Notes: a model not told the origin generated them from the sequence alone. Counted from the stretch's first letter, positions 2,920 to 22,217 are shown. The stretch: 64,000 bases of DNA from a virus (IMGVR_UViG_2579778660_000001), one strand, 5' to 3'. Made by a program: numbers and translations.

Positions 2920-3314
2920 TCCATTTAATGAAATATCTGGATCGCTGGAAGCATCGACTGGTTCCAGTGCATCCAGATAAGATGATTACTGTTCATGCTT
3001 CAAGAGCGAGCGCATACTGCATCCAGGCCAATCTAACTTTCATTCGACCAGAGTGTCACCTCTCAAAAGCATTTTTTGACTCTGGTCGTTCAGCCTTTTT
3101 GCCGCTCGCCTTATCCTCAAAAATTAGCTCACATCCTGCGCTTTCAAGGGCATTTCGTTGCAAAGCGGTGTTTTGGTCATTTGTTGATATGCGAATGTAT
3201 CCAATAAGCATATGTCTCCCTTGTATGCTAAGGATACGATTCTAGAAGATGTCCTGTAAGGAAATAACAAACTGACTAAGTTAGTGGCGCATTAGATGTT
3301 ATTTCTGGAGGGGT

Positions 3315-3641: not shown

Positions 3642-4087
3642 TGGGTAACTTTGGGAATTATTTCATTTTTATCATGGCATTTGTTGCCATCATTGACCGT
3701 TTCATTTTTCGTCGCAAGAGTGTTGAGATTTTGAGTATTGGTGACGCTGTAGTGAAAGAATCCGCTATAGCATTTCCTGTTTCGCTACGTGTTAAGCGAA
3801 GCTGGGTCAGCAATGCTCAAATCGAATATTGGTTGCAAGACCTGAAAAATCCATCTGTGGTTATTTCAGGGAAAACGCGACCAGTTGACGCCTCAAAACG
3901 CGGTGAGAGAGAAGAGTATTTGCTCATCGATACGAAATATCTTGAGCCAACGAAGTGGGATCTGAAAGTCACATTGACTAACGGTAACTGCCGACTGAAT
4001 CCGCTTTATCGCATTTTCCCTATCAATGACTGCATAGAGCGCCAGTTTACGATCGAAAAGCGTGAAGGAGACTGGGATGTCAAATAA
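3641..4087 (+). CDS. putative antiholin / lysis-associated protein (LydB-like), 148 aa
   Basis: TAATG overlap with the upstream gene; N-terminal transmembrane helix; size consistent with LydB. Confidence 0.35.
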   Translation: MGNFGNYFIFIMAFVAIIDRFIFRRKSVEILSIGDAVVKESAIAFPVSLRVKRSWVSNAQIEYWLQDLKNPSVVISGKTRPVDASKRGEREEYLLIDTKYLEPTKWDLKVTLTNGNCRLNPLYRIFPINDCIERQFTIEKREGDWDVK

Positions 4088-4697
4088 GAATAATTATGTT
4101 CTTCTTAATTATGATGAGTTAAACGAAAAGGGGCTGGCAAAACTCGTCAAAGAAATCAGCAAAGGTGGTTACAAGATAGCGAGGGTGATCCCTGCAAGTA
4201 ATGGCAGGAAGAAAGATGGGATCATGACGCGCACGTTTACCCTTATTGGTCTTGATGAACAGACAATGGAAGTTCAGGTTAACGATACCGGTGATATATC
4301 TGGGATCAAACTGAATGGTAAAACAGTACCGTTCAAGCCAGTAAAAACAATGTCGGCTTTGGGGCAATCTCTTGCGGCTTTATTTAATCGCGGAGCAACT
4401 TCTTTCCAGAAGTCATTAGCTCGAAAACTTGCTCGTGCAGCAAAAAATATTGATGACGAAAATAAGAAGCGGCAGGGAGTTAAATCCAACGCTCAGAAAT
4501 TAGCTGAAGCGAAAGAATCACGTGATGCACTCCGTGAAGATATCGCTAATGCTAACGACAAACTGTCTAAACTCCAGAGCAAGTCAGACAAAGTAATGCA
4601 AGATACGGGTAACGTTAAAGCTGCCTTGTCTCAGGAAGTAGCTAAGACACGTGCTCTTAAAGAAGAAATCGCGCGCCTGGAGGATGAGCATGATTAA
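4077..4697 (+). CDS. Hdf-like coiled-coil virion protein
   Basis: AAGGAG RBS 6 nt before ATG at 4077 (track start 4062 is less likely); Lys/Glu-rich coiled-coil C-terminus; sits immediately 5' of the DarA-like gene. Confidence 0.35.
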   Translation: MSNKNNYVLLNYDELNEKGLAKLVKEISKGGYKIARVIPASNGRKKDGIMTRTFTLIGLDEQTMEVQVNDTGDISGIKLNGKTVPFKPVKTMSALGQSLAALFNRGATSFQKSLARKLARAAKNIDDENKKRQGVKSNAQKLAEAKESRDALREDIANANDKLSKLQSKSDKVMQDTGNVKAALSQEVAKTRALKEEIARLEDEHD

Positions 4698-6615
4698 CAA
4701 TCCTTTACGAATTAATATTCAGTCTACTTTTGCTGATACGATCCCCGGCTATATGCCAGGTCGCTGGTCTTCAGAAGAATTAAGCGAAGATGACCTGATT
4801 TTTGAGGCGGCGACCTTAGAAGATATTGAGCTTGCCTATATGGGCAATGAAATTCTGGTTGTGTCTGACGAAGCTATGTTTGAGTCCATAACTACAACCA
4901 GAATTCGGTTAGCTCAAACAATGCGAGCTTTCGTCCGTGCGCTGAATCGTGGCCTGAATGGTACGAATATTATGGCAGGGACTGATGAAGCCGGGACCGA
5001 TGAAAATGGACGTAATTGTATTGGTGGTGCGATTATCGGTCGTGTACGTCGGGTAGCTAATATCCCTGTTTTGACCGCGCAGATACCGCTTACTGACGGG
5101 CAGAGTACAAGCATAATTTTCCACTCTCCAACAGCTGACGGGGCAAAAATAAAGAGTAACGACGAGCTTGTTGCATTTCAGTTTTTACTTAATAAGCGTA
5201 ACGTAACTCACGTTGTCGCCCCGATTGGCGGGAGAGATGTTTCTTTAAGCCAGGTATGCCAGGCGCTATCTAATTTGATTGAGCGTAACAGCGAAAAATT
5301 TAAGAAAGCAAAAGAGCGCCAGGACAAAATGAAGGCAGATATTGAGAGTTATCTCAATGAAGCAGATAAACTGGCAGAAGAACGGTCAATAACAATTGAT
5401 CAGGTGGACGTTGCGCAACGTGGGCTGACTGAAAAGCGTGCTGCTCTTACGGAGATGCAAAAAAAACTTGATGCCCAGAAAGCCATCAACGAGGAATTAC
5501 AAGAAAAACGCGATAAATTGTTGTCTGCTAAAGGTGAAAAAACGAAGGAGCGAGCGTTTAGTGACCAGCTGCGACATGTAAAACATAATCTTGCCATTGA
5601 CGGAAAAACAGTGCTGGATAATGGCGCTGAAGTTAATTATGTCACGTCCGGCAGTGACAATTTCGTTACGATAGTAGCACCTGAAGGTAAATTCAGTATT
5701 GATGCCAGTGCTGTCAAAGGAGGCAGTTTGGCAGATGCTGCAACCAAATTACTTAAAGCCTACCGAGAGCATAACGCAGATAAATATAAAGTTGATGTGT
5801 TACCAGGCCAGCAGGAAGACTCCGAACCACCACAGACAGCCCCCGAGACGAACCCAGTATCACAACCAGAGAGCCAAGATGTAGGTAAATACCACTATGC
5901 ACTTCAATCTCGCCCGGCTGGTGTTGGTGCTGTGCCGGATGGGAATAAAGCCGTGCTTGATCGTCCTGACCAGGCTGATCAGTATTACGGATATGCTCGT
6001 CACGGTATCATTACGTATGACCGTAAACTGACAGATGAAGAAGTCAGCCAGTACGAGTTGCTCTATCTTCCTGATGAAGATGAGCTGAAAGATTTTGCAG
6101 GCCAATTGGTTGTGTCCAGCATGTCTAAACATATTGATGGCTATGTGGACCTGTTTGGCAGTGACCTGAAAACATTCAAGGCGCAAGTGAAAATTCTTTT
6201 CCGCAAAGCGTTTCCAAACGTGGCGTATCCACTTGGTGATGGGGAGAACCTTTTCATTATGGACGTGTATAACGCCCTTCAAAATTATTCAAGCGAAGTA
6301 AAAACAGAGCATGTGGTTGAGCCAGAATCACAACCACAACCAGCACCAGAACAGGAGCCGGAGCCAGAAGAAGCGGGTGAATCAGCAAGTGAAGCTGATC
6401 AGGAGGCAGATAAAGCGCTGGAGTACCTGAAATCCGTGCCGGAGCAGTTTACATCCCGCGATCTGACGGTCATCAGTACTGAACTTGATCATGTACAGGA
6501 AGCAGCAAATGCTCTAATCAGTGCAGGTCGATACGACGAGAACGAAGCCACTGTGGGTGCAGCAGTTGACTACCTGATCAACATTCTGGCTGAAATTCAG
6601 CAGGGAGGTGCTTAA
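4690..6615 (+). CDS. DarA-like internal head protein (defence against restriction), 641 aa
   Basis: GGAGGA RBS with ATG at 4690 overlapping the upstream stop; size close to P1 DarA; coiled-coil and Pro/Glu-rich acidic linker; operon context with a DarB-like gene elsewhere in the window. Confidence 0.45.
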   Translation: MINNPLRINIQSTFADTIPGYMPGRWSSEELSEDDLIFEAATLEDIELAYMGNEILVVSDEAMFESITTTRIRLAQTMRAFVRALNRGLNGTNIMAGTDEAGTDENGRNCIGGAIIGRVRRVANIPVLTAQIPLTDGQSTSIIFHSPTADGAKIKSNDELVAFQFLLNKRNVTHVVAPIGGRDVSLSQVCQALSNLIERNSEKFKKAKERQDKMKADIESYLNEADKLAEERSITIDQVDVAQRGLTEKRAALTEMQKKLDAQKAINEELQEKRDKLLSAKGEKTKERAFSDQLRHVKHNLAIDGKTVLDNGAEVNYVTSGSDNFVTIVAPEGKFSIDASAVKGGSLADAATKLLKAYREHNADKYKVDVLPGQQEDSEPPQTAPETNPVSQPESQDVGKYHYALQSRPAGVGAVPDGNKAVLDRPDQADQYYGYARHGIITYDRKLTDEEVSQYELLYLPDEDELKDFAGQLVVSSMSKHIDGYVDLFGSDLKTFKAQVKILFRKAFPNVAYPLGDGENLFIMDVYNALQNYSSEVKTEHVVEPESQPQPAPEQEPEPEEAGESASEADQEADKALEYLKSVPEQFTSRDLTVISTELDHVQEAANALISAGRYDENEATVGAAVDYLINILAEIQQGGA

Positions 6616-6983
6616 TGACCATCTCTGTTTTAGACCGCCTGAAATTAGGTAAAGAGCTATCAGATCTAATGCAGGCGCAGAAAACTGCGCCAGTATTGCA
6701 ACGCGTCACCATTGGTAAGCAGATTGTTGATGTGATGCTGAAATTGGGCCTGGGGACTGCCGCGCAACCGGCAGCGGAACCGCAACAACAGACTGATCCT
6801 GTTGTAGATGAAGTCCCTAAGATAGTGACTGACTTCCTGGGCGGTGTGTTCACAAAGTCCACACAAATGGAATTTATTGATGCGCTGCGTGGGATCTCAA
6901 ACTATGTTGGCGAGTTCCTTACGTTGGAGCAGGCTAAAGTACAGACCATAAGCTGGGTGAAAGCCAACGGTTATGCCGGGTAA
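6615..6983 (+). CDS. DdrA-like small protein, 122 aa
   Basis: TAATG overlap with the DarA-like gene; size matches the P1 ddrA position; followed by a terminator. Confidence 0.35.
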   Translation: MTISVLDRLKLGKELSDLMQAQKTAPVLQRVTIGKQIVDVMLKLGLGTAAQPAAEPQQQTDPVVDEVPKIVTDFLGGVFTKSTQMEFIDALRGISNYVGEFLTLEQAKVQTISWVKANGYAG

Positions 6984-6986
6984 TCA

Positions 6987-7012
6987 AAAGGGGGTGAAAT
7001 CCCCCTTTCACT
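6987..7012 (+). terminator. intrinsic terminator-like hairpin (aaaggggg-tgaaat-ccccctttc)
   Basis: GC stem followed by a T-rich stretch directly after the stop at 6983. Confidence 0.5.
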
Positions 7013-7065
7013 TCTCTGTTCTCACATAAATCACACTCTTTTTACACTCACAGCTTTCTCTATAG

Positions 7066-8463
7066 TTGGAGTGTATTTTGAACAAATCAGTTACTTCTGC
7101 GCTTTCCGAGGCCGCAGATATTAACAGCGTCATTGCTCTGGTTTCTTCATTAGAGAGGAAAGAAACACGCATGGGGCGAAGTAGCTACGTAGTCACCAGC
7201 AAAGGCGCAGAGGTAAAGACGGCTTTTAAGGTCGTTGATGCCAGCAGTCTAATCATTTCGAACAACCTTGACGGTACGATTAACCCGGCCTTCCCGGAAG
7301 AACTCCAACCACGAGATCGTACCCGGCTATCCAGCAAACTCCAGGTTAACCGTATTGCCTCCGATTTACGCCCGGCACAATTAACGGATTCCGGTATGAG
7401 CAGCCACGGAGCGCCGATAGTTGGTGCGGACAACGTTGTTGAATCCGGCAACGGAAGGAGTATGGGTATCTGGCGTGCCTATGAGCAAGGACAGGCGGAT
7501 GAGTATCGCCAGTACCTGATCGACCATGCGAAAGAGTTTGGTCTGAATCCTGACGAAATTTCGCAAATGTCTATGCCCGTACTGGTGCGAGAAAGACTCA
7601 CAGATGTAGACCGCGCTCAATTTGCCCGCGATTCAAACATTAGCGATCTGCAAGAGATGGCAGCAAGTGAAAAAGCGTATGCGGATGCGCAATTTCTCAC
7701 TGAGAGCGTCATGGCGCTATTTAATCCTTCAGATGATGGAAATCTGCTGGCGCGGTCCAATGATGCGTTTATTCGTGCGTTTTTGCGCGAAATTGGCGAT
7801 ACAGCGACGGCAGGCTTGCTTACTGCCGATGGGCGTCCCACGAAACAGCTTATCGATCGCATCCAGAATGCAATTTTTGCCAAAGCGTACAAGGATGAAA
7901 GGCTTGTTCGGCTGGTGTCGGAAGAGCCAGATCCGGAAATGCGTAATATCCTGACCGCATTAAATACGGCAGCCAGCGATTTTGCGCAAATGCAGTCGCT
8001 GTCTGGCGACGCTCACCATGACGCAGTAACAGGCTTAGTGGACGGTATAGAGCAGGTTAATGGCCTGGATACACAGGCGATAGCAGCACTCCAGGAAGCA
8101 ATCAATCTTGTACGTGAAGCCAAAGACAACGGTCAGGCCGTTGAAGAAGTGATCGCCCAAAGGGGGTTATTCGGTGACAGTACACCGGAAGCTGAGGCAT
8201 TGGCGCTATTCATCGTAGCAAATAATCGCAGTGCGAAGCGTATGGGGGCAGCATTCAAAAAAATGGCGCAAAAAATCAACGACGAGCTGACTCATAAACA
8301 ACAGGCATTGGGCGATATGTTCGGCGGTGGCGATGTTGATCTGCGTCGTATTTTGTCTGCTGTATCTGATGAAATTGAGGGTGAATTTGGCGAAGGGAAA
8401 GGTCTGAACTTTGCTATGTTTGAAAATTCTACAGTTCTAAATAATTGCCGTATGGGAAACTAA
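7066..8463 (+). CDS. hypothetical virion/morphogenesis-associated protein, 465 aa
   Basis: Long ORF with TTG start (uncertain) and no recognisable motif; lies between the Dar-like operon and the portal-like gene. Confidence 0.45.
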   Translation: MECILNKSVTSALSEAADINSVIALVSSLERKETRMGRSSYVVTSKGAEVKTAFKVVDASSLIISNNLDGTINPAFPEELQPRDRTRLSSKLQVNRIASDLRPAQLTDSGMSSHGAPIVGADNVVESGNGRSMGIWRAYEQGQADEYRQYLIDHAKEFGLNPDEISQMSMPVLVRERLTDVDRAQFARDSNISDLQEMAASEKAYADAQFLTESVMALFNPSDDGNLLARSNDAFIRAFLREIGDTATAGLLTADGRPTKQLIDRIQNAIFAKAYKDERLVRLVSEEPDPEMRNILTALNTAASDFAQMQSLSGDAHHDAVTGLVDGIEQVNGLDTQAIAALQEAINLVREAKDNGQAVEEVIAQRGLFGDSTPEAEALALFIVANNRSAKRMGAAFKKMAQKINDELTHKQQALGDMFGGGDVDLRRILSAVSDEIEGEFGEGKGLNFAMFENSTVLNNCRMGN

Positions 8464-12524: not shown

Positions 12525-12553
12525 TGATCTTCCATGTTTTCAGGCTTATATTC
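12525..12553 (+). promoter_or_regulatory. candidate sigma70 promoter (TTGATC - 17 bp - TATATT) driving the c4/icd-like region
   Basis: Good -35/-10 hexamers with 17-bp spacing upstream of a 240-bp non-coding structured segment. Confidence 0.4.
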
Positions 12554-12559
12554 ATGCCG

Positions 12560-12790
12560 TCGTAGCAAATTCTGCGACCAGGTTTGACAGCCTGAATGTT
12601 AGTGCGGACAACCGCAGATTTCCGATATTGCGGTATTTTTGTGTCCGTAAACCGCGTTACGCCCGAATTATGGTGGGGCGTGATGGGGAGGCTTCGGCCT
12701 GCTGGTTTCACTAACGCCAGTCTGTCAACCCTGTCACGTCCTGCCACCTGTTTGACAGCGGGTAGCAGGTTGTTAAACCTGTTAGTGAGG
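12560..12790 (+). ncRNA. candidate c4-like antisense regulatory RNA region
   Basis: No credible ORF; direct repeats gtttgacagc at 12572 and 12751 with complementary ctgtcaac at 12721; a UUCG tetraloop hairpin (aggcttcggcct); immediately 5' of an Icd-like ORF, as in the P1 immI arrangement. Confidence 0.35.
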
Positions 12791-12798
12791 CCGTAACT

Positions 12799-13023
12799 AT
12801 GGTTAATGCCAATCCTTGCTCACGTCCAGAATTCATCTGGCGTTTCCACTCCCTGCAAAAACACTGCGATCACTTCGCAATTGCCGCAACCGAAAAAGAA
12901 GCCCGTTCTCTGATCCCTGATCAGCATGGTGTTCTTACTGGTCGTTTCTCTACTTCCCCACAACCAAACACTAATCCCTGGTATCGCAATATTACCAATC
13001 CCAGCATTGCGGAGGCACACTGA
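12799..13023 (+). CDS. Icd-like small protein (cell-division-inhibitor family), 74 aa
   Basis: Motif PEFIWRFHSLQKH...AATEKEARS; a diverged paralogue at 51993-52190; translationally chained (TGATG) to downstream small ORFs. Confidence 0.4.
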   Translation: MVNANPCSRPEFIWRFHSLQKHCDHFAIAATEKEARSLIPDQHGVLTGRFSTSPQPNTNPWYRNITNPSIAEAH

Positions 13024-13142
13024 TGGATATCTGCCTTCATGAATGCTTTTAACCGGATGATGTCGGAGGCTGAGCACCGAGGAAAACGCTGGTATCACCC
13101 CAAAATGGGGCAATTCCAGGTGATCGGTTGGGGAGGTGAGTG

Positions 13143-13340
13143 ATGGACATCATGCAGGCGGTAAAAAAAATCAGGGAAGAACAGGCTGAAGTGTGCCGCC
13201 GTAAAGCATGGAGTGTTGGTGTATGGGCCTGGCCTGATAATTACTCTACTACCGGATGGTTTTGTATTAATGGACTCCAGATCCGGGAAGTTGATTTATC
13301 GACGGCTGATATAGTCGGTAATGATTGGTTCGTGACTTGA
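13143..13340 (+). CDS. DUF2829-like small protein, 65 aa
   Basis: GGAGGTGAG RBS with ATG at 13143; motifs A.VCRRKAW and C-terminal GNDWFV; occupies the slot where an antirepressor would be expected. Confidence 0.4.
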   Translation: MDIMQAVKKIREEQAEVCRRKAWSVGVWAWPDNYSTTGWFCINGLQIREVDLSTADIVGNDWFVT

Positions 13341-13348
13341 AGCGTGAT

Positions 13349-13373
13349 GCCCCGGCCTGGTCGGGGCTTTTTT
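13349..13373 (+). terminator. intrinsic terminator (gccccg-gcctggt-cggggc + TTTTTT)
   Basis: Strong GC hairpin and T run between convergent genes. Confidence 0.75.
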
Positions 13374-13858
13374 CATGCCTCATTAGTTGAGGTTGCTGCG
13401 TCTCCGACTGGTAACAGAGCGGTATTGCGTGGTTCGCCAGCAGGCCAGCGATAGCCAGACACTCTTGATGTTGGGAATGCGCGAATATTAACCGCATCCC
13501 CCTGGTTCCCACCCAGGACAAGCAGATCGCCATTGGCGCGGCGTCCGACAACGAAGCCTACGTGCCCACCGCCTACGCGGGTAAATACAACGATACATCC
13601 GTATGCCGGTGTATCTAATTTCTCGCCCCAATCCAGATAGGATTTTGCCGACTCAAATCTTGTTGAGCGGATGCCTACACGTTCCAGCATTGCACCGACA
13701 AATGCTGCGCACCACGGCGTTTCATCGTCTTTAATTCCGCCGCGCTTGATGTCGCGCCAAAACTGAACGATTTCAGGGTTGTGTTTAGCGCCTTTTATTT
13801 CAGTCAGGCCAATGTGCTTACGTGCTTCAATTAGCCAGCGAGGTTCAATGTTTGCCAT
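13373..13858 (-). CDS. CHAP-domain peptidoglycan hydrolase (Cys/His peptidase), 161 aa
   Basis: Catalytic-type motifs PWCAAFV (Cys) and GGHVGFVV (His); divergent from the DarB-like gene. Confidence 0.55.
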   Translation of the reverse strand: MANIEPRWLIEARKHIGLTEIKGAKHNPEIVQFWRDIKRGGIKDDETPWCAAFVGAMLERVGIRSTRFESAKSYLDWGEKLDTPAYGCIVVFTRVGGGHVGFVVGRRANGDLLVLGGNQGDAVNIRAFPTSRVSGYRWPAGEPRNTALLPVGDAATSTNEA

Positions 13859-13932
13859 ATTTTTTTCCGGTCATGGGTTAATAAGTAGGCAAACTATGGG
13901 GGGTATGTGATTTTGACGGTAGTATCGTCCCC

Positions 13933-16900
13933 GTGAAAATAACATTCTCCATACCCTCTCAACCGTACCGCATAGCGGATTTTTTACGGTTTAGAGGGGG
14001 TAATCCTTTGGATAAACTACTTCATTCAATCAGTGAAGCTTCCAGCTTAGGCGAACTGATTGAAATTGTTAGTCGGTTGCATAAATTACGTGCTGTTGCG
14101 ACCTTTGGCGTTAAGAAAGTCGATGGTGTCAGCATTCAAAAAACACGGCGGGCAGCAAACAACGCCGCAGTAGAGCTTCTTAATTCCCTTCCGCCCGGCT
14201 TCGATGGGGCGAAATTAACTGACGAACAGCGTCAGATTCTTGCCGGGTATACCGGTGAAGGCGGCCTGACAGATGGTGAGGGCAGCCAATACGAATACTA
14301 CACGCCACAGTTTATGGCTGAAGGTATATGGGATCTGTTTGCTGACTACGGTATTGATGGCGGGCACGTACTGGAACCATCAGCGGGCACAGGTATTTTC
14401 CAGGAGACAAAACGACAGGGCATGATAATGACCAGCGCCGAACTGTCTCCGATTTCCGGTCGAATAAACCAGCTTTTGCACCCGGAAGACGATGTGAATA
14501 TCGGGGCGTTTGAGGCGCTGGCGGCGAAAGACGCAATGTATGATCACGCTGTTGGTAACGTACCGTTTGGTGAAGGGCGTTCCGGTGTCGCCGGGCTTGA
14601 TCCGGCATATGCAAACGAGAAGAACGTTGGCAATTACTTTGTGCTGCGCACGATCGACAAGGTTAAGCCTGGTGGGCTTATCGTATTGGTGGTGCCGAAT
14701 GGCATGACCGATGGTACGAAATATAAAAAATTGCGCGATAAAGTCAGCCGTAAAGCGGAATTTTTGGGCGCACATCGTATGCCTTCCGGTACGTTCAGCG
14801 AATCCGGTACAGATACCGTGGTGGACGTATGGGTATTGCGTAAACACCCGGAAACCTTCCTGGAGATGATCCCCGACACGGATGATTCAACACTCAAATC
14901 GGCAAACGTCCTTTGGGATACCTTCCTCAAAGGAAAATGGTTTACAACCGAAGGGAAGCGATTTGTTTACGGCGACATGGAACGTACCAGCTTCCGCAAT
15001 ACCCTGGTGGTGAAAAAGGACGGTCGTGTATCCAATGAGTCGATGAAAACCGCGCTATCTCGTCGCTTTGATAGTCGCATCAATTGGGATTTGCTCGGCG
15101 TAACTACTCAGGCATGGCAGGGCGCGAAAGTGGGCGATAAACGCCTAGTAGGCGGCATCTGGCATGAGTTTGATGGCCTGAAATGGGTCAAGGACACGAC
15201 AACCAAATCCTCCGCGCTTGATGTAAGTCGATATGGTGTTTCGACATTCGGTGATCTGCAAACAACGTTCCAATCAACAAACGGCATTCTGGCTCTGTCA
15301 TGGGGGCAGATATCCGCGATCGCTTCCGACTATCCATCGGTTATCAGTGATGAAGTAGCGGCAATGATTCGCTTTGCTGGGAAACAACGCGAAAAAGACC
15401 GTGAGCGCATTATGCGCGGTGCGCTGATCGGGCAACTTATCAATAAAGCGCTGGATAAGCGTAACCTTGGTGAAAACGTCGATGATGAACTGGCTGATGC
15501 CGCACGTCTGACGGCTGCCGAAGTTGCTAAATATGGCCCACCACACGCCATTAAGCTAAACGACATTACCGAAGCGGGCGCGAAGAACTGGCTGACATTC
15601 ACCGGGAACGTCAATCAGGACGGTGAAGCATCCGATCTGCTGTCCGGACGGCTTGATGTTAGCAAAGGGGCTGCTGGTATTGATTTCACTCGTCCGGAAC
15701 AGGTTGTGACACACCTTTTCAGCGATGTTGCCCTTAATCCTATCAATCTTGATGACTTCCGCGAGGCGTTTAAAGGCGAACTGCCAGAAGACGACGATCA
15801 AGCACTGGAATACCTGGCGAAATTCGACGATATCGCTATTGATGGATATGGTTGCCTGCTACCGATGGGCCGTGCCACTAGCGGTGATATTAAATCAAAA
15901 GTGGCACTGCTGGTGGGCTGGCGAGACGCGTCCACAGGAGAGCGGAAGGCCAACTTTGAGCGCCAGCTTTCAAAAATCGAAGAGAAACGCACGTTTACAC
16001 CGCTGAACAAAGTCACGGTAAACCTTAACGCACGGTGGTTGGATCGCCGCCTGATAAAAGAGTTCCTGGCAGAGCAGGGCTATGACGAGTTTAAGTATAC
16101 AGAACCCGACCTTAAGGTTGAGAACGGCATTCTGGTATCCCCGGACGATTACGAAGGTAAGGACGGGGTATTTACTGGCTACCAGCTACGAACCGTAAAC
16201 GGCAAAAACGGGAACGAGTTCAAGAAAGCGAATAACAAAGATGGCTTCCTGAATCAGCTTGAGAACTACCTGAACGGTGTTAAACCGCGCGGACAGAACG
16301 CTAACGAGTACCTGGACAAAATCGCCCAGCTTGAGACGAGTTTTAACGACTGGTTAAGAACTCACCCGCAGGCAGACCAGATCGCCCGCGATTATAACGA
16401 CGCCTTTAACGGTTATATTCCATTTACCCATTCAGACGCACCCCTGGGGCTTGAAGGCATCAGCGGGAAACGTATACCGCTTTCTTACCAGAACGAAGAA
16501 GTTCGTCGTCTGTCGGAAGATGGGCGCGGGATTATGGGATTCGGAACTGGTTTGGGTAAAACGACGACCGCGCTGGCACTGGAAGCCTATAACTTTGAAA
16601 CCGGGCGAACCAAACGTACCTGTATCGTTGTTCCAAAGGCCGTATACCAGAACTGGTATCACGAGGCACAGAGCTTCTACAGTGCAGATGCCTTCGCCAA
16701 TATGATGTTTATCGGTCTGGACGAAGTGCGCGATGGTGACGGAAATATTCAGACTGCCCCAGTGCTCGACCAGGACGGCACCCCGCGACTTGATAACGAC
16801 GGCAATCCGATCACCCGTAATGTTGTTAAAGAATCCGCCAGTGCCGTTATCGCTCAACGCATGAACATGATCCCATCGTCGAACTGGCGAACGGTCATCA

Positions 16901-19900
16901 TGACAAAAGAGCAGTTCGCATCTATCCCGTTGCGCGATGAAACCATCGGAGAAAACTCACAGCAGGCTGTCTTTAATGCCGCCGAAATGGGGCGTCTTGA
17001 CCTGGCGTCAGGCAAGCACCGTGATGCGCAGAAGAAGAACAAGATTAAGGACCAGGCCGCGAATACCGGTACAGCGAAGAAGCAGAATATCCCGTACTTT
17101 GAGGATATGAACTTCGATAGCGTAATTGCCGACGAAGGGCACAACTACCGCAACTCCTTTGGTGCCGGGCGTGAAGCGGGGCAACTGGCATATTTACCTA
17201 ATCCGGCGGTATCCAAAATGGCCCGTGACATGGCTGTAAAAGCTGCGTACATGATGAAACGTCACAATGGGCGCGGCGTCGTAATGCTGACAGCAACTCC
17301 GCTGGTTAATAGCCCTATTGACGCCTTCAACATGCTGTCAACGGTGATCCCTCAGCACGAGTGGATGCACATGGGGATTATTACCCCTGACGACTTTGTC
17401 CGAGTGTTCGGTAAAACAGCCACTGTTCAGGTCCAGAAAATTTCTGGCGAAGTGGAAGAGAAACAGGGGCTGGTGGGCTTCCAGAACCTTGATGGTCTGC
17501 GTGGCATTTTCCACCGCTGGACAACGCTTAAAACGGCTTCCGATGTTGGTGCAACGGTAAAAATCCCGGATATCGTCGAAAACACCTTGCAGATCCCAAT
17601 GACTCCAGAGCAGCAAGCAGCTTATGAAGAGCTTCGTAAACGCGCGCAGGAGTTAAGTCGTGGTGATGACGTCACTGTCGATGATGAAGGCAATATCACT
17701 CGCGGGAAACCGGATGATTTCATTTTCTCTATCATTCGCGACATGGATAAGGTCGCTATCGACCCGGATCTTTACGCCAGCGCTATCACATTCCAGTTCC
17801 CTGTAGAACTTACTGAACAGGTGAAGTCTATAGCTAATAACCTACCAAAAGTGGCTGGTGGGAAAGCGGCAGACGATGCAGAAGAAGCAGAGGAGGATGC
17901 GACCGGAGGCCTGGTCAGTACCCGTACCAGCAAGGTTGTAGCTACAACATTTAGTGAGCATCCAAATCACGTCGAATTGCGTGCCAGCATTGACCTGGAG
18001 GCTGAAATACTCAAGGCAATTGCTGATGCAGGCATCGACATGAAACAGGTGTCACACCCGATCCCGCCTAAGTATGCCGCACTTATCGAGAACCTTCGTG
18101 AAGGGCTTAAGAACGGTAAGCAAATTATCTTTATCGACGAGAAAGCCCAGCACCAGAAACTACGTCGCATCATTGCCAGTGCGTTGCAAATGCCAGAGCA
18201 GGAGATAGGCATTATCAATGCTACGACTGTTAGCCAGGCTGGTGGTGTTAAGCTGAAAAAGGTCAAAAAACCGACCGAACCGACGCCAAACAAAGACGGT
18301 GAATACAAAGAAGGCGCATGGGAAACCTACTACAGTAAACTGGCCCAATATGAGGATTATCTCTCTGCTAAAAATGATGCTGGCCTTGAGGGGATGGAAG
18401 GTATTGCTGCCGACTATAACGAAGGGCGCACGCAAATCATTATCTGTAACAAGAAAGCCGAAGTAGGTATCAACCTGCATATTGGAACGACCGATATTCA
18501 CCACCTGACACTACCCTGGACTCCTGCCAGTATCGACCAACGAAATGGGCGCGGTGCGCGCGTAGGTTCTCCGCAAGAGAAGGTTAATGTTCACTATTAT
18601 TGTGGCAAAGGCACATTCGATGACTTCCGTCTGGATACGCTTAAACGTAAGAAAGACTGGATCAAGATGGTGATGACCTCCGATATGTCAGAGATCGCCA
18701 ATGGTGATGCGGATGACGCTGATGAACGCGCCATTATGCTGGCGGCAAATCCGGAAGAACGACGCGCAATTATGGCTCGTCAGTCGAAAGAACGTGAGGA
18801 ACGCCTGCGACTTAAAGCGCAACGCGAAGCCAATAATGCTCTCGATAACTACCTGAAAGCGGCGAATGCTGCCGGGAAGGATATCGGCATGATGGAGGCA
18901 GAACTGAAAAGCGCGATGGAGCAGGCGCAACGATACCAGAGTGATCTGGATGGACTGATTAAGAGCGGCATCAACAAAAACGGACAGAAATATACGCTTT
19001 CAGCACTAAGCAAAGCTAAAAAAAGAGTGCGTGAATTGCGATTTGCAATCACCAGGGCGAAGGACGCGGATACTGTTATGAAACGCTCTCGTGGTGATGT
19101 GGAGCGTGCTATTAAGTCTGGTGTGCTGGATATCAGTATCGATGTTATTCAGAACCCGCAGGAGTATATGCGCACTGGCAAGAACATCCTGTTGCATAAA
19201 GGTAGTTACTACCGTGCAGTCATTGATGCTGAATACGAGACAACGGCGATTGTACGCGTGACACAAATTGAGGGCGAAAAAGCGCAATACACCTGCCGCG
19301 TCGCCTGGCTGGATAGAGCAAGTCGCAACTCTCGTTCTCCTGGCTCAACCATGACATTACCGTTTGACTCAGTGGTTGAAGCGGTAACATTTGAAGAGGG
19401 GGTGGCTGAATCACGAGAAATAGCGGCACGTGGTGTTCAAAGCCACCAGCTTTCAACCTCTCTTTCTCGCGATCAATTCTATGACGCTATTCGTAGCGGT
19501 GTTATGCGGGTAACTGGGAAAGATCGTGGCGGTTGGCAAGGAGCACCGGATGTAAACTATTGGGCTTATCGTAACGCCAATGGTCAGATTCAAATGGCCT
19601 TTACCTATGGCGGGATGATTGGTCAAAAAATTAGCGCATCTGGAAGTGACGAGATAGCACCTGAACAATGGATTTATCCTGATGTAAACGACGAAGCATT
19701 AAAACGCGAAGTCGCGAAAATCCAGACAGGTGATAACCCACTTCGTATTTCAGAGGCAGAAGGTTTTCTCCGTGCATTGTTTGGCTTCGATTATGAGCAA
19801 GGTATGGAAGCATGGGGCGCTCAGGCCACTATGGATGATGTGGTCAAGGCGTTCGATGGCTGGATGGCAGGGCGCGATCTCTCCGGGCGTTCACTTGAAA

Positions 19901-20850
19901 AAGTGACTCAGGAAGATGTCCGCAGCTTGTTCCGCAAGCCAAATGGAGAAGGCCTGGAAACGTACTGGCGAGGCGTGCTTTCTTTCCGCGATTTCCAGGG
20001 GCGCATGAAAGCCTTCACCAATGGTTCGGAGATTTCGCAGATGTTCGAACAACTGCGAACGTCCAAAATCATAACCAAAATTGAGAAAACACGCATGGCG
20101 CTAAATGCATGGCGTGATGCGCTGTTTGATCAGTACAAAATGCAAAGTGATGCAGATGGTTGGGCGTCACTTGCCTCGTTGGCAGATCAGTCAGTTTACA
20201 GTGCGCAACTAAGCATTTCTAATGCCGATAATCCGCTTGAAACATCTGCAACAGTCTGGATTAAAGCGGGGGCGTTAATTCATGCATTTGAGGATAAAAG
20301 CATTACCCGTGATGATTTCGCAGATGCAGATAGCTTGAATCGTCTTGTCGGGATGGCTATACGCCATGCTAACGCCTTAAAAGCGGGCGGGTATGTGGAA
20401 GAGTTGCCTGATGCTCTGAAATCTGCAACGTGGGATGACTTTGTGTCGCTTAAAAATAGTGGCGCTACGGAGTCAGAGATTGCTGAACGTCTTGCGGCGG
20501 CTAAGACTGAACGGGAAGAACAGGCTGATGCTGCTGAGAACAAGGCTGACGAGGCAGCAAATGATGATTACATTATCGTGGTAAACGATAAGCCTATTCG
20601 CGCCAAAGCACGTGTCCGCGGTCGCTGGTGGAGCGTAAGTGAAGACGCTGGTGCTGTTTATCTCATTGCAGATATGCCCGGATCTTCATCTATTCGCAAC
20701 GCAAAAGATGCCATCAAGAAAATCGGTGGGCGTTTCTGGAACTTCGAAGTTAACCCGGTTGCCGATGTGGACTTTGACCGTCCGGCCTGGATGGTATCGA
20801 CGCGCTATTCAATTGATGAAGTGCGTAAAATCATTGAAGCGGCGGCTTAA
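13933..20850 (+). CDS. DarB-like giant antirestriction protein: N6-adenine methyltransferase fused to an SF2 helicase, 2305 aa
   Basis: SAM-binding motif VLEPSAGTGIF and NPPY-like GNVPFG in the N-terminal part; Walker A GFGTGLGKTTTALA, DEAH-like VIADEGHNY and motif VI QRNGRGAR in the middle. Start codon uncertain (GTG at 13933 or TTG near 14006). Confidence 0.7.
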   Translation: MKITFSIPSQPYRIADFLRFRGGNPLDKLLHSISEASSLGELIEIVSRLHKLRAVATFGVKKVDGVSIQKTRRAANNAAVELLNSLPPGFDGAKLTDEQRQILAGYTGEGGLTDGEGSQYEYYTPQFMAEGIWDLFADYGIDGGHVLEPSAGTGIFQETKRQGMIMTSAELSPISGRINQLLHPEDDVNIGAFEALAAKDAMYDHAVGNVPFGEGRSGVAGLDPAYANEKNVGNYFVLRTIDKVKPGGLIVLVVPNGMTDGTKYKKLRDKVSRKAEFLGAHRMPSGTFSESGTDTVVDVWVLRKHPETFLEMIPDTDDSTLKSANVLWDTFLKGKWFTTEGKRFVYGDMERTSFRNTLVVKKDGRVSNESMKTALSRRFDSRINWDLLGVTTQAWQGAKVGDKRLVGGIWHEFDGLKWVKDTTTKSSALDVSRYGVSTFGDLQTTFQSTNGILALSWGQISAIASDYPSVISDEVAAMIRFAGKQREKDRERIMRGALIGQLINKALDKRNLGENVDDELADAARLTAAEVAKYGPPHAIKLNDITEAGAKNWLTFTGNVNQDGEASDLLSGRLDVSKGAAGIDFTRPEQVVTHLFSDVALNPINLDDFREAFKGELPEDDDQALEYLAKFDDIAIDGYGCLLPMGRATSGDIKSKVALLVGWRDASTGERKANFERQLSKIEEKRTFTPLNKVTVNLNARWLDRRLIKEFLAEQGYDEFKYTEPDLKVENGILVSPDDYEGKDGVFTGYQLRTVNGKNGNEFKKANNKDGFLNQLENYLNGVKPRGQNANEYLDKIAQLETSFNDWLRTHPQADQIARDYNDAFNGYIPFTHSDAPLGLEGISGKRIPLSYQNEEVRRLSEDGRGIMGFGTGLGKTTTALALEAYNFETGRTKRTCIVVPKAVYQNWYHEAQSFYSADAFANMMFIGLDEVRDGDGNIQTAPVLDQDGTPRLDNDGNPITRNVVKESASAVIAQRMNMIPSSNWRTVIMTKEQFASIPLRDETIGENSQQAVFNAAEMGRLDLASGKHRDAQKKNKIKDQAANTGTAKKQNIPYFEDMNFDSVIADEGHNYRNSFGAGREAGQLAYLPNPAVSKMARDMAVKAAYMMKRHNGRGVVMLTATPLVNSPIDAFNMLSTVIPQHEWMHMGIITPDDFVRVFGKTATVQVQKISGEVEEKQGLVGFQNLDGLRGIFHRWTTLKTASDVGATVKIPDIVENTLQIPMTPEQQAAYEELRKRAQELSRGDDVTVDDEGNITRGKPDDFIFSIIRDMDKVAIDPDLYASAITFQFPVELTEQVKSIANNLPKVAGGKAADDAEEAEEDATGGLVSTRTSKVVATTFSEHPNHVELRASIDLEAEILKAIADAGIDMKQVSHPIPPKYAALIENLREGLKNGKQIIFIDEKAQHQKLRRIIASALQMPEQEIGIINATTVSQAGGVKLKKVKKPTEPTPNKDGEYKEGAWETYYSKLAQYEDYLSAKNDAGLEGMEGIAADYNEGRTQIIICNKKAEVGINLHIGTTDIHHLTLPWTPASIDQRNGRGARVGSPQEKVNVHYYCGKGTFDDFRLDTLKRKKDWIKMVMTSDMSEIANGDADDADERAIMLAANPEERRAIMARQSKEREERLRLKAQREANNALDNYLKAANAAGKDIGMMEAELKSAMEQAQRYQSDLDGLIKSGINKNGQKYTLSALSKAKKRVRELRFAITRAKDADTVMKRSRGDVERAIKSGVLDISIDVIQNPQEYMRTGKNILLHKGSYYRAVIDAEYETTAIVRVTQIEGEKAQYTCRVAWLDRASRNSRSPGSTMTLPFDSVVEAVTFEEGVAESREIAARGVQSHQLSTSLSRDQFYDAIRSGVMRVTGKDRGGWQGAPDVNYWAYRNANGQIQMAFTYGGMIGQKISASGSDEIAPEQWIYPDVNDEALKREVAKIQTGDNPLRISEAEGFLRALFGFDYEQGMEAWGAQATMDDVVKAFDGWMAGRDLSGRSLEKVTQEDVRSLFRKPNGEGLETYWRGVLSFRDFQGRMKAFTNGSEISQMFEQLRTSKIITKIEKTRMALNAWRDALFDQYKMQSDADGWASLASLADQSVYSAQLSISNADNPLETSATVWIKAGALIHAFEDKSITRDDFADADSLNRLVGMAIRHANALKAGGYVEELPDALKSATWDDFVSLKNSGATESEIAERLAAAKTEREEQADAAENKADEAANDDYIIVVNDKPIRAKARVRGRWWSVSEDAGAVYLIADMPGSSSIRNAKDAIKKIGGRFWNFEVNPVADVDFDRPAWMVSTRYSIDEVRKIIEAAA

Positions 20851-20886
20851 CAGATATGGAGCGGCCTCGAAAGAGGCCGAATTAAA

Positions 20887-21321
20887 ATGACAACATTGAT
20901 CGACACAGTAAAACCAACGGAATCCTACCTTGAGGACATTTTGCCGCAGGCGCTCAATGGCAGGAGTGAAGAGGCATTTCTGGATGCATATCTGAATGGC
21001 ATGGTGGAAAGGCTGAAACGAGATCCACAGCTTTATCACCTTTATGGGCCGTGGTGGCCTGCGCTTAAAACGTTATTGCTGGAGCGCGGCGACATATCAT
21101 TTGGACAAGTTGTAGATAGTGATGTGGCAGAGATCTACAAAATGAGTCGCCCGGCGCTTACGGTTTTGGCTGGGCATCTGTATTCGAGCGATCGCCTGGA
21201 AAATGACGCGGTATACAATCCTGTTCATGCTCTGGAAGTCGCGCTTTATGCTGATGATACAGAGCCATACGTATACACAAGTTACGACGAGTCTATAGAG
21301 AAATATCGAATCGTGGAGTAG
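20887..21321 (+). CDS. hypothetical protein, 144 aa (darB operon partner)
   Basis: Tightly linked 37 nt after the darB stop; acidic; no recognisable motif. Confidence 0.45.
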   Translation: MTTLIDTVKPTESYLEDILPQALNGRSEEAFLDAYLNGMVERLKRDPQLYHLYGPWWPALKTLLLERGDISFGQVVDSDVAEIYKMSRPALTVLAGHLYSSDRLENDAVYNPVHALEVALYADDTEPYVYTSYDESIEKYRIVE

Positions 21322-21323
21322 CC

Positions 21324-21563
21324 ATGCGAAAGAATCGTAGGTTTACGATCGACGACTTAAAAGCGTACTCACAAGGGAAGGGATACGCCCTTGAATACCA
21401 CCGTTATAAGCGAGTATTTACCCTGCGGCATATAGAAAACCCTTCGAAATGGGGATGGATTTATTTTCCGCACACTGACGATAAGCTGGTGGGGCTTGTT
21501 GATGATTTATCCTATGAAGGATGGATGATTGCTATCGACAAGGCGGTTACGGAAATTAACTAA
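21324..21563 (+). CDS. hypothetical protein, 79 aa
   Basis: Starts 3 nt after the upstream stop; Trp/Tyr-rich. Confidence 0.4.
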   Translation: MRKNRRFTIDDLKAYSQGKGYALEYHRYKRVFTLRHIENPSKWGWIYFPHTDDKLVGLVDDLSYEGWMIAIDKAVTEIN

Positions 21564-21758: not shown

Positions 21759-21775
21759 TGTGTTAGAAAATTGAT
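21759..21775 (+). promoter_or_regulatory. operator-like site TGTGTTAGAAAATTGAT overlapping the start of the VRR-NUC gene
   Basis: Motif copy. Confidence 0.5.
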
Positions 21776-22217
21776 GCGAAGACGCAGGCATCATAGTGCG
21801 TATTCTGAAATATCCCCGCACGCTGCTGCACTGAGAGAGTTAGAAAGAAATCCTGACTTATTAAAACGGAATTACGAACATTACGAACAGGTTCGCGTTC
21901 TGGATTGGCTGTATCGCAACATGCGATACGTGTATGAGCACACACACTCAACACCGAACGGCGGCCTGAGAGGCAAAAGGACAGCCATTAAGATGGTGGC
22001 AGAAGGTCAGAAGAAGGGCTATCCGGACCTTTCTATTGACCTTGCTCGTGGTGGGTATCACGGAATGCGCATTGAGATGAAGCACGGGAGAAACCGTCTG
22101 ACTCCCGAACAGCTCGTCTGGATGACTCGCCTCACGGAAGCAGGCTATTACTGCTTTGAGGCGCGCAGTGCCGATGAAGCCATAAAAGCTATCACGGAAT
22201 ATGTAAATCTTGATTAA
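21774..22217 (+). CDS. VRR-NUC family nuclease, 147 aa
   Basis: PD-(D/E)xK-type motifs GYPDLSI and IEMK; ATG at 21774 (track start at TTG 21771). Confidence 0.6.
   Translation: MRRRRHHSAYSEISPHAAALRELERNPDLLKRNYEHYEQVRVLDWLYRNMRYVYEHTHSTPNGGLRGKRTAIKMVAEGQKKGYPDLSIDLARGGYHGMRIEMKHGRNRLTPEQLVWMTRLTEAGYYCFEARSADEAIKAITEYVNLD

Follow-up and report, generated by a model that had tools for sequence, protein, structure and literature searches.

The window analysed here is a 64,000-nt stretch of viral DNA (IMGVR_UViG_2579778660_000001). A single long open reading frame occupies positions 13933 to 20850 of its forward strand (2305 codons if counted from a GTG at 13933) and carries both a methyltransferase and a helicase module. 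A CHAP peptidase gene, identified by domain matches, lies divergently upstream and two small genes follow tightly downstream, all as described in the first-pass annotation. The features of this locus are:

13373–13858, minus strand: CHAP/TIGR02594 peptidoglycan-hydrolase gene, the divergent neighbour of darB, corresponding to D6_16
13994–14000, plus strand: Shine-Dalgarno-like GAGGGGG, 7 nt 5′ of TTG 14008, read from the sequence
14008–20850 (stop codon included), plus strand: darB, starting at TTG and encoding a predicted DarB ortholog of 2,280 aa
14008–14097, plus strand: first 30 codons of darB, where P1 DarB has its capsid-targeting sequence (putative here, by alignment)
14278–14937, plus strand: N6-adenine methyltransferase module, aa ~91–310 (Pfam, PDB match and motifs)
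16483–18567, plus strand: SNF2-type SF2 helicase/translocase module, aa ~826–1520 (Pfam and motifs)
18568–20847, plus strand: C-terminal extension, aa ~1521–2280, the fastest-evolving part of the protein
20858–20879, plus strand: GGAG (20858–20861) and hairpin CGGCCUC-GAAA-GAGGCCG (20862–20879), 7 nt 5′ of the ulx AUG
20887–21321, plus strand: ulx homolog of 144 aa, starting 36 nt past the darB stop
21324–21563, plus strand: 79-aa gene in the P1 lxc position, 2 nt after the ulx stop, matching phrog_6844

The first-pass annotation had hesitated between GTG 13933 and a downstream TTG as the start codon, while giving the protein a length of 2305 aa. TTG 14008 aligns with Met1 of P1-type DarB and is the start called both in the GenBank record of D6 and by RefSeq PGAP. 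The Shine-Dalgarno-like element is kept in D6 and reads GAAGGGG in the E. coli plasmid pHX138.33gt_1. GTG 13933 was rejected as a start codon: D6 has CTG at this position, and a 1-nt indel breaks its upstream frame. With translation starting at TTG 14008, the protein has 2,280 aa and not 2,305. The dN/dS ratio against D6 lies between 0.01 and 0.20 in every computable 150-codon block of the whole gene, C-terminal extension included. Chance alone does not explain the darB frame, which is under purifying selection throughout.

All five motifs quoted in that annotation were recovered, each once, in the ORF. In TTG numbering, VLEPSAGTGIF (aa 121–131, nt 14368–14400) and GNVPFG (aa 183–188, nt 14554–14571) fall in the methylase module, and GTGLGKTT (aa 846–853, nt 16543–16566), DEGH (aa 1042–1045, nt 17131–17142) and QRNGRGAR (aa 1511–1518, nt 18538–18561) in the helicase module. 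The methylase module is of the gamma class, with a TP motif YYTP (97–100), motif I VLEPSAGTG (121–129) and, instead of NPPY/F, a motif IV NVPF (184–187). An LPD36-type region with GEGG (GxGU motif) stands N-terminal to it. The HMM search suggested as a check gave domains above cut-off for the helicase (SNF2-rel_dom, 48.3 bits against 24.9; ResIII, 24.3 against 22.5; Helicase_C, 23.7 against 23.5), whereas Pfam N6_Mtase, at 20.0 bits against 20.4, fell just below threshold. The methylase call is also backed by a match of aa 91–263 to the HsdM structure 7eew in the PDB (E 0.001) and by PHROG methyltransferase families, and P1-type DarB likewise shows a sub-threshold N6_Mtase score and an NVPF motif IV. 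In the helicase module, motifs I (GTGLGKTT), II (DEGH), III (TATP) and VI (QRNGRGAR) are present and a long insert separates the two lobes. Alignment shows that GEGG, YYTP, NVPF, VLEPSAGTG, Walker A and DEGH are common to P1-type DarB. The literature surveyed holds no report of methylation by DarB.

The protein aligns with P1-type DarB at 43% identity (query aa 1–1937 against aa 1–1924, E 0), with a further weak segment at aa 2144–2280 (26% identity, E 0.022). P1 DarB, which is 2,255 aa long, has the same architecture: an N-terminal signal, an LPD36-type region, a gamma-class adenine methylase, an SNF2 helicase and a long C-terminus. Matches in PHROG were to phrog_1685 (full length), phrog_11801 and phrog_10089 ('DarB-like antirestriction'). 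The domains and motifs also agree with the DarB archetype (PMC5512222). More distant DarB-like 'polyvalent proteins' of Bcep22-like, Ralstonia and Erwinia podophages and of Thermus phages have the methylase-SNF2 dyad in common with the present protein. However, they are only 25–33% identical over parts of it (14–36% query coverage) and are larger or carry other domains.

Conservation is uneven along the protein. Its best-kept parts are the methylase and helicase cores (55–67% identity to P1-type DarB), whereas the C-terminal ~340 residues are 16–26% identical. Against D6, amino acid identity is 98–99% over the first 300 codons, methylase included, and 63–67% in the fast-evolving C-terminal part; dN/dS in the C-terminal extension is 0.09–0.20. 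A search with aa 1641–2280 matched 27 representative proteins. All five long-coverage matches were to the C-terminal end of proteins of 2,251–2,302 aa, and the others were short or partial proteins. The AF2 model of the extension, with a pLDDT of 41, was unusable. At the other end, residues 1–30 of P1 DarB suffice for capsid packaging (PMC9024508). The corresponding 30 residues here are ~27% identical to P1-type DarB (~8/30, counted on the alignment), and P1 residues 6–10, implicated in targeting, differ (MGVFR in P1, HSISE here); the capsid-targeting signal has no known consensus (PMC9024508). By analogy with P1, the N-terminal ~30 residues may act as a capsid-targeting signal here too.

The closest relatives are found in D6 and in enterobacterial plasmids. 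With D6 orf15 (ASR76325.1), annotated as 'defense against restriction; similar to P1 gene darB', the protein shares 87.6% identity. The D6 region is 84.8% nucleotide-identical to this locus, has the same TTG start and the same order (divergent CHAP gene, darB, ulx-like orf14, small orf13, pmgM), and differs in its third small ORF, of 86 aa against 79 aa here. Identity over all 2,280 residues rises to 98.4% with WP_238059270.1, an 'SNF2-related protein' encoded by pHX138.33gt_1 (NZ_CP091837.1). Nucleotide identity to this plasmid and to Shigella dysenteriae plasmids CP0268xx is 95–100% from ~14200 to 20800, with 98–100% in all 300-nt windows but two. The first 90 DarB residues, however, are 82% identical to those of pHX138.33gt_1, and the ulx and third genes of that plasmid are more distant (68–83% nucleotide identity). 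Conversely, the first ~1.1 kb of darB is ~99% D6-like and its body just 65–93% identical to D6. The darB gene of the window is a recombinational mosaic.

The other Dar genes lie upstream of darB in the window:

4062–4697, plus strand: hdf homolog (phrog_1620 'Hdf-like antirestriction', 7e-76)
4651–6615, plus strand: darA homolog (phrog_1926, E 0), named from its place between hdf and ddrA
6615–6983, plus strand: ddrA homolog (phrog_1855 'DdrA-like anti-restriction protein', 4e-49)
7066–8463, plus strand: short ddrB homolog of 465 aa, sharing 64% identity with ~440 aa of P1 ddrB

The hdf-darA-ddrA order is that of P1 and D6, and D6_26 is annotated as 'similar to P1 gene ddrA'. The short DdrB, 96% identical to D6 orf25, is half the length of its P1 counterpart, a protein of 108.7 kDa (PMC9024508). 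These four genes (4062–8463) adjoin prt and pro, while darB sits among head and lysis genes, beside ulx; no late-promoter element was recognisable upstream. Judged from sequence, the Dar set in the window is complete. P1 likewise has hdf, darA, ddrA and ddrB, the darB-ulx-small gene order and a GGAG-hairpin 5′ of ulx. The proposal that the Dar operon is rearranged relative to P1 thus does not hold for the succession darB, ulx and ~80-aa gene; the flanks alone differ. In P1 a divergent prt-pro pair stands upstream of darB, whereas the 5′ flank here consists of the CHAP gene, immI and repL. This is the published D6 arrangement and not a new rearrangement. The CHAP gene itself (Pfam CHAP, E 2.7e-7; TIGR02594, 143 bits against a cut-off of 70.55) is read as a neighbour that nothing ties to the Dar system, and in pHX138.33gt_1 an IS200/IS605 element stands between it and darB.

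The two small genes had been presented as partners of DarB, which proved right for one of them. The first encodes a Ulx homolog (47% identity to P1-type Ulx, E 2e-45; phrog_1629 'Ulx-like anti-restriction', 4.6e-58), and its D6 counterpart, D6_14, is annotated as 'similar to P1 gene ulx'. Ulx is a known helper for DarB packaging. The GGAG-hairpin upstream of ulx has a fold energy of −14.9 kcal/mol (z −4.6), and its layout is kept, with differing stem sequences, in D6, in the P1-like RCS47 and in Citrobacter, Pantoea and Xenorhabdus plasmids. The second gene occupies the position of P1 lxc and is not a known partner of DarB. Its family is narrow, and in alignment a premature TAA removes the last 7 codons relative to homologs of 85–86 aa. 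An AF2 model of the protein (pLDDT 86) had no match to known folds. BLASTP gave no significant match to P1 Lxc (E 5.1). A 7-sequence profile of the family showed marginal similarity to Lxc (hhalign P 0.002, 67 collinear columns), a score reached by 3 of 400 shuffles. The Xenorhabdus member reached E 0.009 against Lxc in one single BLASTP comparison, and a database tblastn with this member did not retrieve P1-type lxc. In the P1-like L002 (ulx 13802–14242, lxc 14239–14487), a ~80-aa gene also directly follows ulx, as in the Citrobacter, Pantoea and Xenorhabdus plasmids. The 79-aa gene may correspond to P1 lxc in this element. The lxc product (Bof) modulates immunity, acting as a co-repressor with the C1 repressor, and does not belong to Dar; the 79-aa gene probably lies outside the Dar system.

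At the sequence level, the element carrying darB is a D6-like, P1-type phage-plasmid (plasmid-prophage). We read the ORF as the DarB ortholog of this element, with a packaged anti-restriction role by homology to P1, and give this reading a probability of about 0.88. The initial proposal of a DarB-like methyltransferase-helicase of a P1-type Dar system stands because of the homology to P1-type DarB and D6 orf15, the adjoining downstream Ulx homolog, and hdf, darA, ddrA and ddrB in the window. Since close relatives already carry the annotation, this intact and genuine darB is a known, ordinary finding.

It is unlikely that the protein, packaged and ejected like DarB, has a main job other than blocking type I restriction, such as countering BREX, or marking or remodelling the genome on entry in preparation for early transcription or replication. 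In such a case the divergent C-terminal third would confer a target unlike that of P1 DarB, and the low conservation of the last ~340 residues, fastest-evolving even among close relatives, would fit. According to a review, Dar protects against BREX besides type I enzymes (PMC12707154), and methylase-helicase dyads of the DarB type are found in many 'polyvalent' proteins, next to diverse partners (PMC5512222). However, all six Dar genes are retained together in P1-like fashion, the catalytic cores are the parts kept best, and no feature of the window suggests another target.

A plasmid-borne enzyme of host defence or restriction-modification, akin to the DISARM, Dnd or Zorya helicases and guarding the lysogen against other phages rather than travelling in the virion, is very improbable. 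RefSeq names such proteins merely 'SNF2-related protein' or 'N-6 DNA methylase', and there are weak local NCBIfam matches to helicase regions of DrmD, DpdE and ZorD. For membership of a defence-helicase family, a score reaching the NCBIfam equivalog cut-off was required, and every candidate was rejected with a score far below it: DISARM DrmD (45.2 bits against 610), DpdE (34.2 against 500), Zorya ZorD (17.5 against 1500) and the Dnd restriction family dnd_restrict_1 (27.4 against 600). Moreover, the protein has neither a nuclease nor a specificity domain by Pfam, its gene lies amid those for head and lysis functions and beside ulx, and its P1 ortholog has been demonstrated in virions (PMC9024508). 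Hardly credible at all is a decaying relic, kept by chance or as capsid filler with dead enzymatic modules. The sub-threshold methylase score, the non-canonical motif IV and the premature stop in the adjoining 79-aa gene could be read in this sense. Against it, the 6.8-kb frame is open, dN/dS does not exceed 0.2 in any computable block, the catalytic motifs are all intact and shared with P1, and amino acid identity of the methylase region to D6 and pHX138 is 100%.

For the DarB ortholog of the P1-type Dar system, the locus itself offers homology, intact catalytic motifs, purifying selection, a kept darB-ulx operon and the remaining Dar genes. What follows on packaging, on ejection, on the targeted restriction systems and on the biochemistry is drawn by analogy from P1, whose virions contain DarB, Ulx, DdrB, DdrA, DarA and Hdf (PMC9024508); there, assembly of the Dar proteins is ordered, they are co-ejected with the DNA (PMC12810830) and protection works in cis (PMC12707154). 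As in P1, DarB would be synthesized during lytic growth and targeted to the procapsid by its N-terminal ~30 residues, as the final step of an ordered assembly that would begin with Hdf and DarA, continue with DdrA and DdrB, and also need Ulx. Roughly 40 copies of DarB are carried per P1 head and exit with the DNA. Type I restriction enzymes themselves translocate on DNA. Most likely, the SNF2-type motor would travel along the incoming duplex, where the fused gamma-class adenine methyltransferase would then modify or occupy target-site adenines, and/or the moving motor would block or displace type I enzymes. In a new host, DarB would thus protect in cis its own co-delivered DNA from type I enzymes of the EcoKI/EcoBI kind.

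The darB locus of the window consists of a long open reading frame, two small genes that follow it and a divergently transcribed neighbour:

13373..13858, minus strand, 161-aa CHAP ORF upstream of darB, a CHAP/TIGR02594 peptidoglycan hydrolase by profile
13933..20850, plus strand, long ORF as called
20887..21321, plus strand, ORF after darB (144 aa), the ulx homolog
21324..21563, plus strand, ORF after ulx (79 aa), hereafter the third gene

The first-pass annotation had described this arrangement and likened the large protein to P1 DarB. ORF, motif and profile searches confirmed the ORF, the motifs, both small genes and the divergent CHAP gene, and each of the quoted motifs was found once in DarB. 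With the ORFs, motifs, domains and CHAP neighbour all present, the observation is thus confirmed. In the profile search, the helicase domains scored above their Pfam gathering thresholds (SNF2-rel_dom with 48.3 bits, and also ResIII and Helicase_C), whereas the N6_Mtase profile fell just under its cut-off (20.0 versus 20.4 bits). Further support for the methylase assignment comes from the match of residues 91-263 to 7eew, a type I HsdM subunit of solved structure (E 0.001), from matches to PHROG methyltransferase families, and from a complete set of gamma-class motifs, with YYTP as the TP motif, VLEPSAGTG as motif I and NVPF as motif IV. A defence-system helicase identity is unsupported, as the NCBIfam DrmD, DpdE and ZorD matches reach 17-45 bits against cut-offs of 500-1500. 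DarB is 87.6% identical to the product of orf15 of Escherichia phage D6, a P1-type plasmid-prophage, and 98.4% identical to WP_238059270.1 from the E. coli plasmid pHX138.33gt_1; it shares 43% identity with P1-type DarB across residues 1-1937. D6 orf15 is annotated as 'defense against restriction, similar to P1 gene darB', and orf14 as 'similar to P1 gene ulx', orf13 being hypothetical. We consider it highly probable (about 0.9) that the window gene is a functional DarB ortholog. The first-pass annotation was right in substance: both darB and the phage group that carries it were already known, as was the finding itself. For DarB there is nothing new beyond an allele, and the value lies in the correct annotation.

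Two start codons had been proposed for darB. The GTG at 13933 is rejected, since D6 has CTG at this position and a 1-nt indel breaks the frame upstream of the TTG at 14008. For the same reasons, the 75 nt before this TTG are without conserved coding. The alternative, a TTG placed near 14006, proved to be the start: the TTG at 14008 aligns with Met1 of P1-type DarB, the GenBank entry of D6 and the RefSeq annotation of the plasmid homolog both begin the protein there, and GAGGGGG precedes it 7 nt upstream. From this codon DarB is 2,280 aa long. The choice of start matters because the first 30 residues of P1 DarB constitute the capsid-targeting signal (PMC9024508).

Upstream of darB, a weak sigma-70-like TTGACG-16-GAAAAT at 13913-13940 is the sole element of its kind, and we make no promoter claim for it. 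The palindrome ACTAANTTAGT, seen before lydA and which we take to be P1-late-promoter-like, occurs at 3275 and 22813 but is absent before darB, and its count is not above chance. In pHX138.33gt_1 (NZ_CP091837.1), the plasmid with the closest darB, the CHAP gene and darB are separated by an IS200/IS605 element (4188-5877) that carries tnpA and another transposase gene. The element takes the place of what lies upstream of ~13936 in the window, including any promoter there.

The other Dar genes are located upstream of darB:

4062-4697, plus strand, hdf
4651-6615, plus strand, darA
6615-6983, plus strand, ddrA
7066-8463, plus strand, ddrB, short (465 aa)

Together with darB and ulx, these account for six of the six P1 Dar genes. 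The ddrB product matches a ~440-aa stretch of P1 DdrB with 64% identity, and its D6 counterpart has 454 aa. Since P1 DdrB is a protein of 108.7 kDa (PMC9024508), D6-type phages have a half-length DdrB. The window between 13300 and 22000 is 84.8% identical to D6, and at least 118 PLSDB plasmids from E. coli, Salmonella and Shigella match the same region; the Ulx homolog is carried by 825 PLSDB plasmids.

The locus had also been described as rearranged relative to P1. This holds for the flanks. P1-type phages have prt-pro divergent upstream of darB, ulx and lxc. Here the CHAP gene takes the place of prt-pro, and the order upstream is lydA, lydB, hdf, darA, ddrA, ddrB, then prt, pro, repL and the immI region with its C4 antisense RNA, the darA operon, prt-pro, repL and immI being co-directional. 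This flank, shared with D6, is not new; the CHAP gene corresponds to D6 orf16, which is divergent in D6 also. The operon itself (darB, the ulx homolog and a gene of ~80 aa) keeps the three-gene order of P1-type phages and is thus conserved. The immI-type region extends over 12546-13340 and includes the C4 antisense RNA (12666-12751), its a1/b1 targets (12546-12598) and an icd-like ORF (12799-13023). The D6 anti-repressor gene (708 nt, D6_18) seems to be missing, with ~115 nt between icd and the next small ORF (13140-13340). On the 3' side of the operon, a pmgM homolog (21771-22217) is annotated in RefSeq plasmids as a VRR-NUC nuclease-domain protein and also matches the PHROG 'Holliday junction resolvase' family phrog_5702 (1.2e-35). 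Four plus-strand tRNA genes follow between 25285 and 27529 (Asn-GTT, Thr-TGT, Ser-TGA and Met-CAT). In the D6 locus, viewed in the same orientation, the Asn, Thr and Ser tRNAs lie on the other strand, and the stretch compared has no annotated tRNA-Met.

Both small genes had been proposed as partners of DarB. For the first, the proposal stands. Its product is 47% identical to P1-type Ulx (E 2e-45). Since Ulx of P1 belongs to the virion proteins and 'aids DarB localization' (PMC9024508), this gene is a true DarB partner. The second occupies the lxc position and is probably not a Dar component. Its family is narrow (three clusters in 5.8 billion proteins), and plasmids of Citrobacter, Pantoea and Xenorhabdus have more distant members in the same third position behind ulx. 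The window copy ends at a TAA (21561-21563), 7 codons early, where the closest homolog reads Glu; it is thus C-terminally shortened compared with the 85-86-aa homologs. BLAST found no similarity between the third gene and P1 Lxc, the co-repressor of C1. In hhalign comparisons of the third-gene profile with Lxc, the P value went from 0.3 to 0.004 and 0.002 as distant members were added, with a full-length collinear alignment; of 400 Lxc shuffles, 3 scored as high as the real sequence. Pairwise, the score was reached by 30/5000 shuffles for the window protein and 712/5000 for the D6 protein, and is not robust. The Lxc family in the large database amounts to about one sequence and frameshifted copies of it. 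With BLAST negative, pairwise shuffles not robust and profile comparisons marginal, the third gene was not identified as Lxc; at the level of sequence profiles, a distant relationship is possible. If true, the third gene would modulate the C1 repressor and would not be a Dar component.

The 36-nt spacer between darB and ulx contains a GGAG (20858-20861) followed at once by the hairpin CGGCCUC-GAAA-GAGGCCG (20862-20879), which has a GNRA loop and a fold energy of -14.9 kcal/mol (z -4.6); the ulx AUG lies 7 nt further. The same layout is found in D6, in RCS47 (P1-like) and in plasmids of Citrobacter, Pantoea and Xenorhabdus; the stem sequence changes from one to the next, the hairpin energies are -13 to -17 kcal/mol, and the linear distance from GGAG to AUG is 23-29 nt. 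With stems of unequal length, RNAalifold on a MAFFT alignment of the leader yielded a poor consensus, and each sequence was folded separately instead. No other Shine-Dalgarno sequence was detected near the ulx AUG in the window or in any of these five lineages. A Vibrio plasmid has both the hairpin and a normal GAGGAAG close to the AUG. Genes 25 and 38 of T4 have a split ribosome-binding site, where a hairpin draws a distant Shine-Dalgarno close to the start codon. By analogy, the ulx leader looks like a site of this type; alternatively, its hairpin may be an mRNA stabiliser or a processing site.

Comparison along the locus shows that darB is a recombinational mosaic. The sequence is roughly 99% identical to D6 from 13300 to ~15100 and 95-100% identical to pHX138.33gt_1 (CP091837) from ~14200 to 20800, while the ulx region (91% to D6, 72-83% to pHX138.33gt_1) represents a third lineage. 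The breakpoints fall within the N-terminal part of darB and at its 3' end. This pattern implies that phage-plasmids swap the darB body separately from ulx and from the packaging signal at the N-terminus. Conservation is uneven along the protein:

Identity of DarB regions to P1-type DarB
Methylase region: 55%
Helicase lobes: 58-67%
Middle linker: 38%
C-terminal 720 residues: 16-26%

The first 300 codons, methylase included, are 98-99% identical to D6. The C-terminal extension is the fastest-evolving part, its dN being 0.22-0.29 and its amino acid identity to D6 63-67% around residues 1800-2100. Despite this fast change it is clearly under purifying selection, dN/dS versus D6 being 0.01-0.20 in each computable 150-codon block of darB, extension included. 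An exhaustive representative search with residues 1641-2280 matched 27 representative proteins, and the long matches were all in DarB-sized proteins, which suggests that the extension is a DarB-family module. A word-indexed search returned only relatives at 66-85% identity, and an AF2 model on a shallow alignment reached a pLDDT of 41. It is conceivable, though we think it rather unlikely, that the C-terminal ~700 residues form a fast-evolving, freely recombining module that sets which host defences are countered or how DarB docks in the head; the range of defences countered would then vary among D6-type DarBs and be unlike that of P1 DarB.

A mechanism can be proposed from P1 (PMC9024508, PMC12810830, PMC12707154, PMC5512222), where ~40 DarB copies are packaged per head and exit with the DNA. 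Hdf and DarA would assemble first, then DdrA and DdrB, and as the last step DarB with Ulx, the DarB N-terminus targeting the procapsid. DarB would then act in cis, shielding the arriving DNA from type I restriction. The SNF2 motor may translocate along the duplex as it enters, with the methylase modifying or occupying target adenines, or the moving DarB complex may displace type I enzymes. This model, in either form, is favoured by the intact Walker A, DEGH and motif VI of the SNF2 motor and their fusion to an intact adenine-methylase module. We are far less confident of any one biochemical step than of the ortholog status.

The by-products are small testable leads: the conserved GGAG-hairpin as a putative translation signal for ulx, the darB breakpoints and a possible Lxc counterpart. 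More broadly, the finding confirms that the Dar set of D6-like phage-plasmids is complete and kept by selection. These are common elements in E. coli, Salmonella and Shigella, and some of them have resistance genes; the result bears on the ease with which they cross restriction barriers.
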